IMG/VR virus record: IMGVR_UViG_3300049144_000095 | Span: 187,160 to 251,159 of that record | DNA: 64,000 nt | Origin: a virus | Lineage: Duplodnaviria > Caudoviricetes | Direction: 5' to 3' (one strand) | In this document: piece by piece, positions 33,010-39,057 of the stretch | Layout of the letters: each line of letters starts with the position of its first letter | Numbering within the stretch: position 1 is the stretch's first letter | Program-made: the position numbers and the translations under genes | The notes under the pieces: generated by a model | The model's database searches: none | What the model saw: the letters and a program-made list of their open reading frames with translations, nothing else | Told to the model about the DNA's origin: nothing

Positions 33010-33342
33010 ATGTTCCTGTATTACGTTGCACCTGTCGTGCGCACCGACGCAGGCATGACCGTCAACCCCCTGAGCGGAGCCTGCGTGCTGGCCGGTTCGC
33101 CGCACGAGGGTCATCGATCCCTCGGGCTGCCCGACGCGGGCGAGATGTTCGCCGTCTGGGTGTTCGGTCAGACCGACTCTGCCGAGCGCCCCGAGCTGAC
33201 CCTGTGGCGGGCGGGTGAAATCTGCTCACAGATGCCACCCCACAGGGTCTACGCCTGTCTCGGCGGTGGCGCCTTGTGTGAACTGAACATCGATCCGCTG
33301 CTCGATGTGCGTGTGGAGGCCGGACGTGCTGGTGCCGACTGA
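33010..33342 (+). CDS. hypothetical protein
   Basis: GGAGGAAG RBS; overlaps the FtsK-like gene. Confidence 0.55.
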   Translation: MFLYYVAPVVRTDAGMTVNPLSGACVLAGSPHEGHRSLGLPDAGEMFAVWVFGQTDSAERPELTLWRAGEICSQMPPHRVYACLGGGALCELNIDPLLDVRVEAGRAGAD

Positions 33343-34645
33343 CGAAGAGCAGCGCCTACTGGAATGCCTGTCAACGGAGTGGTGGTCGAAGAACGCCACC
33401 GCTCCGGTCGTTCGAGATGTTGTCGTGCTCAAATCGGAGATGACACGGGCCGGTGTTGAGGCACACCTGAAGATCACCGGAAACAGCACCAACGCGACAC
33501 GTCAGAAGCTGGAGGACGGTGTCGACTTCTTGCGCGTCCTGCTGGATGTCGAAGATGACCATCCACTGGTGGTTCTCCCCAACGGCCGAGCCTCACAGGT
33601 GAAAATCGCCATCCGTACCCGACGGGTCACTGAGGAGATGGACATGTTCTGGCATCCGGGCCGCGTCGGGCTGGGTGTCGACAGCGTGACCGGGGATGTT
33701 GTCGACATCCCCTTCCAGAAGCAGCTCCAGGTGTCCGGCGCCAAGGGGTCCGGCAAGTCCTGGGCCATGCGCCCGATGATGGCGCGTGCCGTCATTCTGC
33801 CCGAGATCAGCCCGGTTTTCGCCGACCCCAAGATCGTCGAAGGTACCTGGTGGGAGGGGCTGATGCCGGTCTACTACCCGGGTGAGTTCGAAGAGATGCT
33901 GGACTCGGCGACCGACGACATGCACACCCGCGCCGAGCTGATGCGGAAGGAGAGGTCGACCGTCTGGCGCCCCGAGTTCGGCCCCTACCGGATCTACATC
34001 GTGGATGAAGGCCGCGAGTTTCTGGGCAACCTCCGGCGAATCGACTTGGTCAACCAGAAGCTGGCCCGTGCCAGGCGGCGCAGCGAAGAGGAGAGCGAGG
34101 TCGAGCTGTCTCCCGGGGACGGCGAGTGCCTGGACAAGCTGCTACGCATCTCCAGCATGGGTCGAGCCTGGGGCGTCTTCCTCTGGTGGGCCACGCAGTA
34201 CCCGATCGTTTCTGGGAAGAATCCCGGCATCGATACCAATGTCGACGCGAATGCCGACTACCGCTTCTCTCTTCGCGTGAGCAAGCCTGGGCATGCCGCC
34301 GTGGCGCTGGGCGAAGATGCGGACTACGGGCCTCACCTGCTCACGGCGGACGACAGGAACCGTGGCTTCGGTTATCTCGGCGGATACGGACCGTCCCTGA
34401 TTCAGACTTGGACCGTGACCGACGAGATGATCTCACTTCTGGGGTATCCCGATCACGGGCGCGGAAAGTGGCCCCGCGACATCGCCCTCAAGGCGATTCA
34501 GGAACAGCCGGGCGCCGTATGGACGCCGGATCTCCTGACGTCGCGAGTCGGCTGCGGCCGAGTACAGGCGAGCAGGTTCCTGCGAACCTTCTCACGTGAG
34601 GGGCTGATGACTGCCGACCGAGACGCTTTCCGCCTGGTCGTGTGA
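33326..34645 (+). CDS. FtsK/SpoIIIE-family ATPase, TraB-like DNA translocase with C-terminal wHTH
   Basis: Walker A GAKGSGKS; FADPK; Walker B YIVDEG; GRAWGVFLWWATQYP; terminal LTSRVGCGRVQASRFL. Confidence 0.8.
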   Translation: MLVPTDEEQRLLECLSTEWWSKNATAPVVRDVVVLKSEMTRAGVEAHLKITGNSTNATRQKLEDGVDFLRVLLDVEDDHPLVVLPNGRASQVKIAIRTRRVTEEMDMFWHPGRVGLGVDSVTGDVVDIPFQKQLQVSGAKGSGKSWAMRPMMARAVILPEISPVFADPKIVEGTWWEGLMPVYYPGEFEEMLDSATDDMHTRAELMRKERSTVWRPEFGPYRIYIVDEGREFLGNLRRIDLVNQKLARARRRSEEESEVELSPGDGECLDKLLRISSMGRAWGVFLWWATQYPIVSGKNPGIDTNVDANADYRFSLRVSKPGHAAVALGEDADYGPHLLTADDRNRGFGYLGGYGPSLIQTWTVTDEMISLLGYPDHGRGKWPRDIALKAIQEQPGAVWTPDLLTSRVGCGRVQASRFLRTFSREGLMTADRDAFRLVV

Positions 34646-34825: not shown

Positions 34826-34900
34826 TGGCGAATAGCTCAGCTCGGTCAGAGCGCGGAACTGATAATTCCGAGGTCGAAGGTTCAAGTCCTTCTTCGCCAA
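34826..34900 (+). tRNA. tRNA-Ile(GAU), CCA not encoded
   Basis: TGGCGAA/TTCGCCA acceptor; GCTC/GAGC D stem; CGGAA-CT GAT AA-TTCCG; GAAGG-TTCAAGT-CCTTC. Confidence 0.93.
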
Positions 34901-35104
34901 CTGAGCCAGGGGGGTAGCGCTGGGCACGGCGCACCTCCTGGCTCACTCTCTCTCCCCGCTGCACCTGGTACGGGCGGTGCAGCGGGGAGACGCCAAGCGA
35001 ACGGCGCAAGGAGCAGGTCGCATCGAGATGGGTGGTTCGTCGGAGCAGGTCAGGGGGTTTCGGCCCGACGGCCAAGCGGTCAACTAACCACCATCGTCCA
35101 TAGC

Positions 35105-35133
35105 TTGACGGTCGAACTGAGAGTAAATACCTT
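35105..35133 (+). promoter_or_regulatory. putative sigma70-type promoter for the Y-RNA array
   Basis: TTGACG-N17-TACCTT. Confidence 0.55.
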
Positions 35134-35169
35134 GCGGCACTACCGCAGGATCTTGTACTGTTTTTCTTA

Positions 35170-35245
35170 GCACCCGGTGTGAAGGCAACGGTTACTTCTT
35201 CTGCAAAAAGAACCCACACCGTAGCCGATTCGGTTAACCGGGGGC
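35170..35245 (+). ncRNA. Y-RNA-like gene 1 (short; scaffold plus single anticodon-like stem-loop, GCA)
   Basis: CCCGGT/ACCGGG closing stem; shared GGTGTG..ACGGTTACTTC..CACCGT..CGATTCGGTTAACC; TTCTT-CTGCAAA-AAGAA hairpin. Confidence 0.75.
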
Positions 35246-35263
35246 GTCAACTTCACAGTGGTT

Positions 35264-35408
35264 CTGGAGTCGTTCGGTGTGATAGTGACGGTTACTTCAC
35301 CTCTGGAGTGAGTAGACCGGTTCAACTCCGGCGACGGCGAAAGCCCGGTAGTGTAACGGCAGCACGCTAACGTACACCGTTGCGATTTGGTTAACCGGAC
35401 GACCCCAG
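35264..35408 (+). ncRNA. Y-RNA-like gene 2 (YrlA-type; circularly permuted tRNA-Gln-like module)
   Basis: CTGGAGTCGTTCGGT/ACCGGACGACCCCAG stem; TTCAC-CTCTGGA-GTGAG, T arm CCGG-TTCAACT-CCGG, GAAA-capped acceptor remnant, D arm GTGT-AACGGCA-GCAC. Confidence 0.82.
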
Positions 35409-35432
35409 AGTCACTGTGATGTGCGCAGACAA

Positions 35433-35576
35433 ACCGGCTGGTGTGTAAGCATCAGTTACTTCCGGTAATCTCTAGGTCGTTGGTTCAAGTCCAACCCGGA
35501 GCTTAAACACTTCGGTAGCTCAGTTGGCAGAGCAAGAGACAAATTGTCACTGGTGCGACTTGGTTAACCAGCCGGT
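35433..35576 (+). ncRNA. Y-RNA-like gene 3 (YrlA-type; circularly permuted tRNA module)
   Basis: ACCGGCTGGT/ACCAGCCGGT stem; TCTCT-AGGTC-GTTGG TTCAAGT CCAAC-CCGGAG loop CTTCGG-TA-GCTC AGTTGGCA GAGC-A-AGAGA (T arm precedes D arm). Confidence 0.88.
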
Positions 35577-35593
35577 CTGCCTGCGTACATGAG

Positions 35594-35622
35594 ATGCCCC
35601 CTCCCTGGAGGGGGCATTTTTT
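35594..35622 (+). terminator. intrinsic terminator closing the Y-RNA array
   Basis: ATGCCCCCTC-cctg-GAGGGGGCAT-TTTTT. Confidence 0.85.
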
Positions 35623-35643
35623 GTTTGACCGGAAAGGGGAGAA

Positions 35644-35859
35644 ATGAAAGCAGTCGGTGTCAGATATACGAACATCGACGCCCCCGAGAGTAACGGGTGC
35701 GACGGGTGCCTTGCCCTGAAGAACGTAAGGGCCTTCTGTGCGGATCACCGAGAAGGTCGCCCCTGTCTCTGGTGCCTCGACAGGGGCTACGCCGTGAGGG
35801 AAAACCGCTGGTTGCCGTGCGGATGCCGAACGGATCGAGTCAACGAAGAGGAGAACTGA
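35644..35859 (+). CDS. small Cys-rich (Zn-binding) protein upstream of Ro60
   Basis: GGAAAGGGGAG RBS; CDGC, CADH, CLWC, CGC; stop 3 nt before the TROVE start. Confidence 0.7.
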   Translation: MKAVGVRYTNIDAPESNGCDGCLALKNVRAFCADHREGRPCLWCLDRGYAVRENRWLPCGCRTDRVNEEEN

Positions 35860-35862
35860 ACC

Positions 35863-37473
35863 ATGACCCGTTTCAACATCAAGACAACCCAGCCGAAGGC
35901 GAAGGCTCCGGCCATCGGCACCTCTGTGAACCACGAGGGCGGCACCGGCTACACGCTCCCGGAGAAGGGTGAGCTGTTCAATCTCGCCACCGTCAACTTC
36001 GTCGGACAGGACACCTTCTATGAGAAGGGCGTCGACCGGGACGCACGCTACAACGGGCTCGTTGAGAGCGTCGCAGTCGACGACTGGTCCTGGTTGCGTG
36101 GCATGCTGACATGGCTGCGCTCCGACGCCAACATCCGCACCGCCTCCCTCACAGGCGCCGCGCACGCCGTGCACCGCCGCCTGGCAGCCGGTCAGTACGA
36201 CGGCAACGCCGAACTGGTCGACTCCGTGATCCAGCGCGCCGATGAGGTCGGCGAGTTCGCCGTGTACTGGCTCGCCACCTTCAAGGGCACCATGCCGAAG
36301 CCGGTCAAGAAGGGCCTGGCGATGGCGATGGTGCGCCTCTACACGGCCCGCAACGCCCTGAAGTGGGACTCGGGGGCGCGCGGCATGCGTTTCGCCGACG
36401 TCATCAACCTCGTCCACCCGAAGCCGCGCGACTCCGAGCAGGAGGCGCTGTGGAAGTACCTGCTCGACGAGCGCGGGCACAAGGACGGCAGCATCGACAC
36501 GGTGCCGATGATCGCCGCTCGCAAGCGCTGGTACGACGAGTTCTCCGACGAGCAGAAGCTGGCCTCGCTCCGCGACGGCTCGGCGTTCCGCGACTGCGGT
36601 CTCACGTGGGAGAACGCGTCGTCCGAGCTGAAGGCCCGAGTCGGCGAGAAGGTGCTATGGGAAGCGATGGCCTCGCACCTGCCCTACATGGCCGCCATAC
36701 GCAACCTGCGAAACATGGACCAGGCGGGCATCTCGTACACCACGGCCAGCAAGCTGGCGGCGCGCATCGCAGACCCGGCGGAGGTGGCCAAGTTCCGGCA
36801 GCTTCCGTACCGGTTCCTGTCCGCCTACCTGGCGGCTCCGAGCGACCGCTGGAAGGGTGCCCTGGAGGAGGCCATCAACCTGTCGCTGAAGTCCGTGCCG
36901 GAACTGCCGGGGCGCACGCTGGTCCTGGTCGACACTTCGGCGTCGATGAACCAGATGGGTTTCTCGGAGAAGTCCAAGGTGACCCCGGCCGTGGCGGCGG
37001 CCATCTTCGGCACGATCCTGGCCCAGCGCAACCCGGGCCGGGTCGAGCTGTACGGCTTCGCCAGCGGCGTGTTCAAGCACGACGTCAAGCCGGGTCAGGG
37101 GGTCCTCGCCGCCACGCAGGGCTTCATTCGCCGGATCGGCGATGTCGGGCACGGTACCGAGATGACGGCGTCCATCCGCCAGACGTTCACCGGGCACGAC
37201 CGCGTGTTCGTGATCAGCGACATGCAGTGCTTCGCGGACGACTCCGGGACGATGCTGACCAACGGTGAGACATACGGCGCGGTTGCGCAGCCGGTTCCGG
37301 TGCCGAACGGTACGAAGGTGTACGGCGTCAACATCGGCGGCAACACCAAGACCGCGATCGACTCGCGGATCAAGAACCGGTTCGAGTTCGCCGGACTGAC
37401 CGACCAGGTCTTCCAGCAGATCCTCGCACTGGAGGCCGGGTTCGCCGAGAAGTGGCCGTGGATGACTGCCTGA
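35863..37473 (+). CDS. rsr: Ro60/TROVE RNA-binding protein with C-terminal vWA domain
   Basis: NHEGG..Y....KGELF..FVGQDTFYE; WLRSDANIRTAS; RFADVINLVHPKP; LPYMAAIRNLRN; QLPYRFLSAY; LVLVDTSASM. Confidence 0.93.
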   Translation: MTRFNIKTTQPKAKAPAIGTSVNHEGGTGYTLPEKGELFNLATVNFVGQDTFYEKGVDRDARYNGLVESVAVDDWSWLRGMLTWLRSDANIRTASLTGAAHAVHRRLAAGQYDGNAELVDSVIQRADEVGEFAVYWLATFKGTMPKPVKKGLAMAMVRLYTARNALKWDSGARGMRFADVINLVHPKPRDSEQEALWKYLLDERGHKDGSIDTVPMIAARKRWYDEFSDEQKLASLRDGSAFRDCGLTWENASSELKARVGEKVLWEAMASHLPYMAAIRNLRNMDQAGISYTTASKLAARIADPAEVAKFRQLPYRFLSAYLAAPSDRWKGALEEAINLSLKSVPELPGRTLVLVDTSASMNQMGFSEKSKVTPAVAAAIFGTILAQRNPGRVELYGFASGVFKHDVKPGQGVLAATQGFIRRIGDVGHGTEMTASIRQTFTGHDRVFVISDMQCFADDSGTMLTNGETYGAVAQPVPVPNGTKVYGVNIGGNTKTAIDSRIKNRFEFAGLTDQVFQQILALEAGFAEKWPWMTA

Positions 37474-37484
37474 GCGGCGCACAG

Positions 37485-37518
37485 CGACGGGCCCCTTCGG
37501 AAACGAGGGGGCCCGTCG
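37485..37518 (+). terminator. GC hairpin after the Ro60 gene
   Basis: CGACGGGCCCCTT...GGGGGCCCGTCG. Confidence 0.65.
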
Positions 37519-37540
37519 TGGTTCACTCTCACCGAAGGAC

Positions 37541-37570
37541 TGGCCTAGGCCACGAAGTTTCCCATAGAAT
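37541..37570 (+). promoter_or_regulatory. promoter with GGCCTAGGCC (37542-37551)
   Basis: TGGCCT-N18-TAGAAT. Confidence 0.6.
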
Positions 37571-37598
37571 GGAATGGTTGACGGAAAGGAAAAGAAAC

Positions 37599-38621
37599 GT
37601 GACCACCAAGATCTGGATCAACCGAGCCCGCACGTACAAGACACACCTCATCGACATGCTGCGCAGCAATCCCGACGGGCGACCGGTGGAGATCTACACC
37701 ACGCACGTGGAAGCCAGCCCGGCGACCGCCCGTGCGGACCACTACAGCGCCGAACCCTCCCGGGAGACCCCGGACGAGGAGTACGCCGCCTGGGCCCTGG
37801 AGTTCGCGGAGCGCAATGGCATCGACTTCCTGCTCCCTTCGGACCGGGTCGTCGCACTGTCTCACTACCAGCACGAGTTCGCCCGGATCGGCACCACGCT
37901 GCTCTCCGCGCCGAACCCCGACCGCGCGGCCGTCACCAACTCCAAGACGGAAACGTACCGCCTGGCGGCAGAAGCGGGCCTGCGGGTGCCCCTACATGTC
38001 CAGGTGTCCACTGCGGCCGACTTCCGTGACGCGGTTCGCAAGATCGAATGGCAGGGCTTCCCGGCCTGCGTGAAGCCCGACACGGGGTGGGCGGCCGACG
38101 GTTTCTGGCTCATCAATCACCGGCGTCCCAGTGCCTCCGAACTCTTCACTCGCGGGCAGCGTACGGTTCGCGCAGAGGACTACGCCCGAGCCCTCCACGA
38201 CCTGGAAGACGGCGGAGAGAAGATTCCGCCACTCATCGTGATGCCCTACATGGACGACCCGGAGACGAGCATCGACTGCCTCACCGCTTCGGACGGCCAG
38301 GTCGTCACCACGATCGCCCGCAGCAAGGGTCGTTACGCGCGCACCTTCAGCGACGATCCGGCAGTGCATCACATCGCCCGCACGATGGCGCAGGCGCTCG
38401 GCATCACCTACCTGTCCAATGTGCAGACCAGGATGCTGGACGGTGAACCCATGCTGCTGGAGGTCAACCCCCGCGCCTCGGACGGTCTGCCCCACTGCAT
38501 GGCCACCGGCATCAACCTCGCCTGGGAAGCGGTCCGCCTCGCCTCCGGAGAGCCCGTGCGTGCACTGCGGCCCGACACCAGCAAGCTGCTCTACGTCGTG
38601 GACAGCATCATCGAGCTGTAG
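37599..38621 (+). CDS. ATP-grasp protein, Ter-associated type
   Basis: KIWINRARTY..LIDMLRSNPDG; YAAWALEFAERNGIDFLLP; CVKP; LIVMPYMDDPETSIDCL; LLEVNPR. Confidence 0.8.
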   Translation: MTTKIWINRARTYKTHLIDMLRSNPDGRPVEIYTTHVEASPATARADHYSAEPSRETPDEEYAAWALEFAERNGIDFLLPSDRVVALSHYQHEFARIGTTLLSAPNPDRAAVTNSKTETYRLAAEAGLRVPLHVQVSTAADFRDAVRKIEWQGFPACVKPDTGWAADGFWLINHRRPSASELFTRGQRTVRAEDYARALHDLEDGGEKIPPLIVMPYMDDPETSIDCLTASDGQVVTTIARSKGRYARTFSDDPAVHHIARTMAQALGITYLSNVQTRMLDGEPMLLEVNPRASDGLPHCMATGINLAWEAVRLASGEPVRALRPDTSKLLYVVDSIIEL

Positions 38622-38673
38622 GGATGGACCTGGGGTCCTCCGTGCAGCAGGCACCTTGAAGGAGGGGCCTGGA

Positions 38674-39057
38674 ATGGGTCAGGGAAGCACGGTCGAAGTC
38701 GGCGGAGAGGTTCTTTCCGTCGGTGACACGGTGATCGTGGAGAAAGGGCGGGACCGGGTGGAATGTCCGATCACCTCGATCGGCAATAAATACATCCACG
38801 TGAAGATGCACAACAGGGCGCTGAGGTTCCGTATCGGCGACCAGTCGGTTGCCGACAACCGGCGCGGAGTGCCCGCCCGCTTCTACACGCACACCGAAGT
38901 GGCTCGGGCGAAGAAACGGAGGGATCTGATCCTTCGCCTTCATGCTCTCGGATTCAAGCCGGTGGAGGGTTCTCTCAGCTCCGCGTCTCAGTACGATGAT
39001 GAGACGTTGGAGCGGGTTATCGCCGTCTTGTCCGAAAGCGTCAACTCCGGGAAATAA
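38674..39057 (+). CDS. hypothetical protein (SH3-like beta-rich N-terminus)
   Basis: GGAGGGG RBS; LSVGDTVIV...ITSIGNKYIHV. Confidence 0.6.
   Translation: MGQGSTVEVGGEVLSVGDTVIVEKGRDRVECPITSIGNKYIHVKMHNRALRFRIGDQSVADNRRGVPARFYTHTEVARAKKRRDLILRLHALGFKPVEGSLSSASQYDDETLERVIAVLSESVNSGK

Follow-up and report, generated by a model that had tools for sequence, protein, structure and literature searches.

A tRNA-Cys-type anticodon loop at the predicted tip of a minimal Y-RNA-like module in a Streptomyces-type phage

More than 250 bacteria and 22 phages encode YrlA-like RNAs beside Ro60, and the minimal partner RNAs form extended hairpins whose small loops are rich in pyrimidines (Chen et al. 2014, PMC4201824). 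In that description, a less-conserved stem-loop before the T arm is labelled 'V', for variable arm (Chen et al. 2014, PMC4201824), and the Ro60-binding motif is given as GGUCCGA / GNCGAA (PMC4201824). YrlA is stated to have no anticodon loop (Wang et al. 2018, bioRxiv 10.1101/312249; crystal structure 6CU1), its tRNA-like domain has been proposed as a possible competitive inhibitor of an anticodon nuclease, with the rsr-yrlBA-rtcBA operon linked to anticodon-loop cleavage (Hughes et al. 2020, PMC7790460), and a Thermus phage has a Ro60 that binds both host PNPase and two Yrl RNAs of the phage (PMC12135203). Our full-text literature searches, which left some reviews outside their coverage, returned no description of anticodon-type loops in Y RNAs. 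Here we describe such a loop at the predicted tip of Y RNA 1, the first of three Y-RNA-like units in a 64,000-nucleotide (nt) stretch of viral DNA (IMG/VR record IMGVR_UViG_3300049144_000095; hereafter the window).

The window is the final 64 kb of the 251-kb record, and the source virus is a Streptomyces-type phage; the closest GenBank relatives are the Streptomyces phages Satis, Kradal, Quantum and EhyElimayoE, with 78% identity across 35144-35643, a region whose counterpart carries no annotation in the records of these four phages. Between a tRNA-Ile gene and a terminator, the window holds three tandem structured units built on one common scaffold (about 35170-35590, + strand) which, judged from this context and the scaffold, are Y-RNA-like. 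They stand next to a Ro60 gene and on its strand, as bacterial and phage Y RNAs do (array 35170-35590, TROVE open reading frame (ORF) 35863-37473, both +).

Y RNA 1 would belong to the YrlB type, and its effector end would mimic an anticodon arm and be shown to a protein that recognises anticodon loops, a reading to which, on sequence comparison, we give an even chance. More broadly, Y RNAs of this kind are likely to present anticodon loops to a protein that reads tRNAs, because similar hairpins recur at the equivalent spot in many phage and actinomycete Y RNAs.

Anatomy of Y RNA 1 and its sister modules

Y RNA 1 is a minimal, YrlB-like module of 77 nt on the + strand, with ends (35170-35246) predicted from closure of the terminal helix in RNAfold (-28.0 kcal/mol); its scaffold is common to copies 2 and 3 of the array and to Satis and the surveyed loci L004 and L005, and Kradal as well as Satis has this Y RNA 1. 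The terminal helix is bulged. Its 5′ strand (35173-35182, +) carries a Ro-site-like GGUGUGA(AGG), its 3′ strand reads GGUUAACCGGG (35232-35242, +), and in the minimum-free-energy structure 35173-35178 pair with 35237-35242; within the 3′ strand, GGTTAACC is kept in all three copies as well as in Satis, L004 and L005. The Ro-binding-like motif, GGUGUGAAGG at 35176-35185 with the Satis equivalent GGUGCGAAGG, matches GGUCCGA / GNCGAAN0-1G approximately, and GGTG[CT]GA stands ahead of copies 1 and 2 in the window and of all three Satis copies. A second stem of 9 base pairs (bp) follows, in which GGCAACGGU (35184-35192, +) pairs with ACCGUAGCC (35218-35226, +), and Satis shows compensatory changes on its two strands (GGUAGCGG / CCGCCGCC).

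The 25 nt between the strands of stem 2 form the tip, which consists of UAC, a hairpin resembling an anticodon arm, and CCCAC. The hairpin (35196-35212, +) reads TTCTT CTGCAAA AAGAA and joins 35196-35200 to 35208-35212 by five Watson-Crick pairs around a 7-nt loop, CUGCAAA (35201-35207), with GCA at 35203-35205. It begins at the TTC of GGTTACTTC (35190-35198), where UACUUC (35193-35198, +) is conserved family-wide and its UUC supplies the first three hairpin pairs; on the 3′ side, the linker CCCAC (35213-35217, +) leads back to stem 2, minimal modules having linkers of the GAA-(A)ACAC / CCCAC type. Exactly this loop is the anticodon loop of tRNA-Cys(GCA) in five actinomycete genomes, three of them Streptomyces (arm ACGGC-CUGCAAA-GCCGU), and it satisfies the rule of Y32, U33, purine 37 and A38 (C-U-GCA-A-A). 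A sequence-only reading of the window had described a perfect 5-bp stem bearing the canonical tRNA-Cys loop; the bases and the five genomes bear this out, with a caveat on register that is taken up below.

That reading had also placed the hairpin at the same scaffold position as a Gln arm in copy 2 and had found no D or T arm around it, and both points hold. The anticodon arm of Y RNA 2 (UUCAC-CUCUGGA-GUGAG, Gln CUG; 35296-35312, +) lies exactly 100 nt 3′ of the copy 1 hairpin, and likewise starts on the TTC of GGTTACTTC. The 25-nt insert of Y RNA 1 has no T arm, D arm or T-loop motif and draws no ARAGORN call, and an Rfam search of the module gave no match at the gathering score or at E values up to 10. 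Lacking a CCA-ended acceptor stem as well as D and T arms, Y RNA 1 does not qualify as a decoding tRNA, and the tRNA-like domain that defines YrlA (RF02553) is absent from copy 1 and present in copies 2 and 3. What it does resemble is the minimal, YrlB-type Y RNA, a class defined by description, without a sequence family or model against which it could be scored.

Copies 2 and 3 represent two fuller layouts. Copy 2 of Satis, once de-permuted, is called tRNA-Gln(ctg) by ARAGORN. In a soil-metagenome variant about 93% identical to the array, the first anticodon base of copy 2 (position 35303) is changed from C to A (CUG to AUG) with the loop frame intact, and the resulting CUAUGGA loop occurs in locus L035 too. 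Y RNA 3 has the classical YrlA layout (35457-35473, +): UACUUC is followed by CGGUAAU and then CUCU (35470-35473), which as the 3′ strand of the anticodon stem pairs with AGAG (35525-35528) located after the D arm. Copy 3 alone matches the Rfam YrlA model (35449-35559, 39 bits, E 7e-7, under the gathering score), and its homologue in L004, de-permuted, is called tRNA-Thr(ggt) by ARAGORN. The Thr-like CC-GGT-AA with a rearranged stem that had been seen in copy 3 is thus borne out, and so is the notion of the array as a set of anticodons, different anticodons being found within single arrays.

Anticodon-type hairpins across Ro60 loci

Ro60 loci were gathered from viruses and actinomycetes (83 viral and 80 actinomycete, 163 in all; of the matches, the best 80 of 183 viral and the best 80 of 113 genomic ones were kept) and parsed into 427 modules, 230 of them non-redundant. 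In 84 loci, the Ro60 strand has 318 occurrences of TACTTC and the opposite strand 114, and in nearly every module TACTTC sits after a GGTGCG-type Ro motif and a second stem; UACUUC appears to be the conserved 'YUAY' that opens the 'V loop' of Chen et al. (PMC4201824). The non-redundant modules comprise 97 tRNA-like ones with room for a hairpin ahead of the T arm, 63 minimal ones, 22 with the T arm right after UACUUC and 48 unclassified.

Among the 97 tRNA-like modules, a 5-bp stem anchored on UUC and closing a 7-nt loop occurs 17 times, compared with 1.7 times in shuffled sequences (maximum 7 in 300 shuffles), and YU-NNN-RA loops occur 21 times versus 0.16. With the D-arm side joined to the UUC side, 61 of the 97 are called as tRNAs by ARAGORN, with the anticodon in the UACUUC hairpin; among the isotypes are Cys, Gln, Pro, Asn, Glu, Ser, Arg, Met, Lys, Gly and Trp. 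Canonical variable loops (for example AGGUC) and then a T arm come after the hairpin. Because of this enrichment, these calls and the variable loop and T arm that follow, the UACUUC hairpin of tRNA-like modules is, by sequence, the anticodon arm and not the variable arm. The modules themselves read as whole tRNAs in circularly permuted form, with the Y scaffold joined between tRNA positions 26 and 27. Other modules (copy 3, L007) have the classical YrlA layout, in which UACUUC is followed by a single strand resembling an anticodon loop and the 3′ stem strand pairs beyond the D arm. Closed-hairpin modules have a conserved linker of the YUAACGUU type behind the D arm, the classical layout (copy 3, L007) has ACAAAU(U/A)GUC there, and L006 (closed hairpin) and L007 (classical) have an identical GUUAA loop at equal array positions. 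In the 22 non-redundant modules that go straight from UACUUC to the T arm (for example L070:1892, L074:1832, L082:2173 and L014:1892) there is no anticodon arm; the family therefore spans arm-only, T-first and complete permuted-tRNA forms.

The minimal modules, to which Y RNA 1 belongs, show the same tendency. In 19 of the 63, a 7-nt loop is closed by 4 bp or more in a hairpin whose start lies 0-4 nt from the first U (mean of 3.9 in shuffles, at most 10 in 1000), and loops of 5, 6, 8 and 9 nt account for 7, 7, 2 and 8 cases. Of the 19, 15 have U33, 16 have purine 37 and 7 fit YU-NNN-RA throughout (mean of 0.07 in shuffles, at most 2); one 4-bp arm, UUCU/AGAA, bears CUCGCAA, CUCGUAA or CUGCAAA in different minimal modules. 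An anticodon-like hairpin is therefore common and non-random in minimal modules and not universal, and copy 1, with its full 5-bp stem, is the tRNA-like extreme of their range. The enrichment of YU-NNN-RA at this position over homologous loci, proposed as a check in the sequence-only reading, is seen in both classes. The same reading had staked itself on a loop neither random nor variable in length among homologues. Randomness is countered by the excess over shuffles; constancy of length is lost in part, because 44 of the 63 minimal modules lack such a hairpin (shorter, longer or none) and because L072, which shares UUCUUCUGC with copy 1, has a tip of 3 bp and 6 nt (UUC-UUCUGC-GAA).

The CUGCAAA loop recurs in its own right. 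A scan for a GGTGYG motif, TACTTC, a gap of 0-4 nt and CTGCAAA, in which pairing was not required and to which the modules already collected were added, gave 16 modules in Y context (nine minimal, six full and one with two hairpins). Over the 15 distinct modules, 89% of cells in the 5-bp closing stem are paired, against 67% in shuffles (none of 500 as high) and 53-64% when the partner strand is slid, and all five closing pairs show changes on both sides; part of this 'covariation' consists of 4-6-bp stems sliding along U-rich and A-rich strands. Two full modules with the Cys loop, L012 and L085, have a D loop of tRNA-Cys type, and the body of L012 matches tRNA-Cys best. On a Spirillospora sp. 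chromosome, L087:1941 is a minimal module in which a 6-bp stem (UUCUUU/AAAGAG) carries CUGCAAA; the arm-only Cys-loop form is therefore not confined to phage contigs. A looser pattern scan of viral contigs with TACTTCNNCTGCAAANNGR was set aside: the matches listed were mostly chance ones in coding DNA, and non-Y matches were unused as a control because the pattern itself forces two pairs.

Several features of the hairpin weigh against an anticodon-arm reading of copy 1. Its stem, UUCUU/AAGAA, is unlike that of tRNA-Cys and rich in A and U, and on its own the 5-bp, 7-nt hairpin comes to 0.0 kcal/mol. For the whole 77-nt module, RNAfold assigns P ~0.14 to the 7-nt register and ~0.85 to a shifted one, a gap of 1.3 kcal/mol; the shifted form is a three-base slide in which UUCU/AGAA closes a 6-nt loop, GCAAAA, with 4 bp (35199-35212). 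The four nearest copies offer only one informative substitution, A to G at 35209 in Satis and L004, which leaves a U.G pair in both registers, and L005 has lost the outer pair.

The tip might on these grounds form no anticodon-like hairpin at all, being instead the shifted 4-bp hairpin or an open pyrimidine-rich/A-rich loop that receives a single-strand RNA binder such as the KH/S1 domains of PNPase. Slippage is permitted by the repeated UUCUUCU, and tethering of PNPase is the sole demonstrated effector function of bacterial Y RNAs (the Deinococcus Ro60-Y RNA-PNPase complex; Thermus phage Ro60, PMC12135203). However, the 15 CUGCAAA modules fall from 89% paired in the 7-nt register to 63-64% when slid by one position, L005 retains four pairs in the 7-nt register and three in the shifted one, and hairpins throughout the family are anchored on the UUC of UACUUC; we regard this as the most doubtful of the accounts considered here. 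By sequence comparison, covariation favours the 7-nt register over the shifted one of RNAfold: a 5-bp stem with a 7-nt loop is present in the sequence and covaries over the 15 modules, whereas RNAfold prefers the 4-bp, 6-nt form for this copy. A further pairing, GGUU with AACC, was rejected outright (RNAfold P = 0) and, as the sequence-only reading had needed, is not dominant.

Triplet identity and candidate partners

With the tRNAs of one Streptomyces genome as reference (53 distinct tRNAs, 43 anticodons), 33 of 38 loops with U33 and purine 37 carry a natural Streptomyces anticodon, against a chance expectation of about 67%; these natural triplets represent 24 anticodons and 17 amino acids. 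When modules alike in their flanks are compared in pairs, 45-61% of the pairs differ at positions 34-36, 18% at position 32 and 8% at position 38 (positions 33 and 37 being fixed by the way the loops were chosen). One constant arm, UUCCA/UGGGG, bears GUU, GCU, GUC, CUU, UUU, CCU, UCU or ACU, depending on the locus (L006:2353, L064:2348, L068:2340, L080:2334, L017:2360, L018:2349 and relatives). The anticodon seems to switch in single-base steps on a conserved permuted-tRNA module. A conserved frame with a free triplet is equally compatible with diversifying selection and with drift at unconstrained positions.

The body of a module and its triplet are frequently uncoupled. Gln-type bodies bear Ser, Pro or Asn triplets, and a D arm of tRNA-Gln type, GGUGUAAUGGCAGCAC, is found with Ser, Pro or Asn anticodons in L051:2066, L082:2021, L089:2149, L049:2164 and L031:925. 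Also unfavourable to display of an anticodon-arm mimic is that the body best matches the isotype of the anticodon in only 6 of 32 full modules and that unnatural triplets with A34 (ACC, AUG) occur. Identity mimicry is therefore not general, and capture of fresh cognate tRNAs was rejected as a general account of the modules, this test of cognate bodies being weakly positive.

These mismatches bear on a structural alternative, in which Y RNA 1, in the manner of other hairpin Y RNAs of the YrlB type, would serve only as a 'gate' or stabiliser of Ro60 and its tip would be what is left of a permuted tRNA-Cys module after loss of the T, acceptor and D arms, kept as a stable U-turn cap whose triplet goes unread. 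Drift at positions 34-36 predicts frequent disagreement between anticodon and body together with unnatural triplets, the tips of minimal modules vary in sequence and length, and every degree of completeness is seen (full, T-arm-first and arm-only). A passive cap, however, does not sit easily with a Y32, U33, R37, A38 frame far above chance in minimal modules of distant loci, nor with CUGCAAA recurring atop stems that differ in length and sequence; natural anticodons are enriched, as the 33 of 38 loops indicate, and the metagenome variant, with 26 differences over the array, has none within the hairpin. We hold this account to be possible and clearly less likely than display of the loop to a protein.

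For display of an anticodon-arm mimic, which we prefer, the proposed arrangement is as follows. Y RNA 1 would combine a bulged, Ro60-binding terminal helix and a 9-bp second stem with a 25-nt tip, and the tip would fold on UACUUC into a 5-bp hairpin that exposes the tRNA-Cys loop (C32 U33 G34 C35 A36 A37 A38). This hairpin and the complete anticodon arm of many sister modules would be one and the same, copy 1 having retained that arm alone, and the hairpin would act as the effector-binding end. Candidates for the partner are nucleases, modification enzymes and synthetase-like binders, in each case an anticodon-reading protein that would be tethered to the Ro60 particle or sequestered on it. 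We infer that Y RNA 1 is produced and bound by Ro60, that its tip adopts the 7-nt register in vivo and that a protein reads the loop.

A more specific version, in line with the anticodon decoys suggested in the sequence-only reading, takes the partner to be an anticodon nuclease of the host: Cys, Gln and other anticodon loops held on Ro60 would absorb or signal such enzymes and shield host or phage tRNAs during infection. Anticodons do differ within arrays, nothing on the constant arm changes faster than the triplet, the loops equal natural host anticodons, and inhibition of this kind has been proposed for YrlA's tRNA-like domain (Hughes et al. 2020, PMC7790460). The phage itself has few tRNAs: among seven ARAGORN calls, of which Asn, Phe, Lys, Pro and Ile are convincing and Gly and Glu dubious, there is neither tRNA-Cys nor tRNA-Gln. 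However, neutral drift at positions 34-36 accounts for the variability equally well, a stoichiometric decoy demands very high RNA levels, and similar hairpins are present at Ro60 loci of bacterial genome assemblies such as Spirillospora L087 (prophages possibly among them). No nuclease, defence system or cleavage datum is tied to the Y RNA locus, and the phage has no gene for RtcB or of the CCA-adding/PolyA_pol family, which leaves the locus without a tie to tRNA repair and likewise tells against an anticodon-reading function. We consider a nuclease decoy or sensor unlikely for Y RNA 1. The wider proposal that Ro60 loci of actinophages and actinomycetes are arrays of Ro60-tethered anticodon stem-loops (full permuted tRNAs or arms alone) that bait, inhibit or report anticodon-cutting host nucleases, with triplets diversifying by point mutation on a constant arm, is offered as a speculation of similarly low probability.

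Genomic setting and described relatives

The array follows an FtsK-like gene (33305-34645) and the tRNA-Ile(GAU) gene (34826-34901), and the three-RNA unit is closed by an intrinsic terminator (35591-35623, +) with a 13-bp stem and a run of T. A scan of 34900-35900 with the sigma-70 consensus gave no promoter, a look for RNA runs that contain the locus gave none, and the structure of region 35022-35100, with a GGUGGUU...AACCACC closure, is not significant (z = -0.97). Between the terminator and Ro60 lies a 71-codon ORF (35644-35859) that ends 3 nt before the Ro60 start, has no Pfam match and is missing at the same position in Satis. The Ro60 gene itself (35863-37473, +) encodes 536 residues with TROVE and vWA domains (Pfam TROVE E 2.4e-15); its product, the presumed protein partner of the Y RNAs, shares 71% identity with the Satis 'Ro-like RNA binding protein'. 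Immediately 3′ is a gene for an ATP-grasp protein of the Ter-operon type (PF15632, E 5e-31; 37452-38621), and in the same downstream block a further gene encodes a phage ProQ C-terminal-like domain (PF24203, E 6e-14; 38419-39057); its product could, from its domain, be a second RNA-binding partner.

The published model gives Y RNAs no anticodon loop; in the present family, the UACUUC hairpin is a canonical anticodon-type arm and frequently has a loop identical to that of a host tRNA. The partner of the tRNA-like end of Y RNAs, a question since 2014, would thereby be narrowed to readers of anticodon loops (nucleases, modification enzymes and anticodon-binding domains), and the hairpin of Y RNA 1 would be a minimal, 17-nt bait for the idea of such a partner. 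Should the partner prove to be a defence nuclease, the array would represent a new kind of phage counter-defence or guard in the arms race over tRNA cleavage; if it is another protein, the accepted anatomy of a widespread RNA family would still be revised.

Minimal YrlB-type Y RNAs and phage YrlA were known already; what is added here is the arm-only minimal form and its statistics. Like the YrlB-type RNAs (S. Typhimurium YrlB, M. smegmatis YrlB and D. radiodurans Yrn2; PMC4201824), Y RNA 1 is short, lies by rsr, would associate with Ro60 and has tRNA-like sister RNAs. It differs in that its tip is a discrete UACUUC hairpin with a tRNA-Cys loop, a reading that has not been published for YrlB tips, and in that its own association with Ro60 is predicted. 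With YrlA (RF02553, 6CU1) it shares the type of locus and the scaffold, copy 3 reaching 39 bits below the gathering score and phage YrlA genes being known. By contrast, the 'anticodon stem' of YrlA continues into the Ro-binding stem, and copy 1 has no tRNA-like body, keeping just the hairpin labelled 'V'.

The resemblance to the anticodon arm of actinomycete tRNA-Cys(GCA) extends to a 5-bp stem, an identical CUGCAAA loop, U33 and A37-A38, but the stem of Y RNA 1 (UUCUU/AAGAA) is unrelated to ACGGC/GCCGU and much weaker, and there is no tRNA body and no possibility of aminoacylation. D. radiodurans Yrn1 has a 5-bp hairpin called a 'potential anticodon arm' (Chen et al. 2014); its loop, however, is of 6 nt, it lies between T-like and D-like arms, and no loop identical to that of a tRNA was reported. 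The permuted-tRNA modules L012, L008, L382, L360 and L308 have the same loop as copy 1 at an equal position on the scaffold. In L012, UUCCU-CUGCAAA-AGGAG is followed by a variable loop, a T arm, a capped acceptor and a D arm of tRNA-Cys type; these modules are complete cloverleaves, whereas copy 1 is the arm alone.

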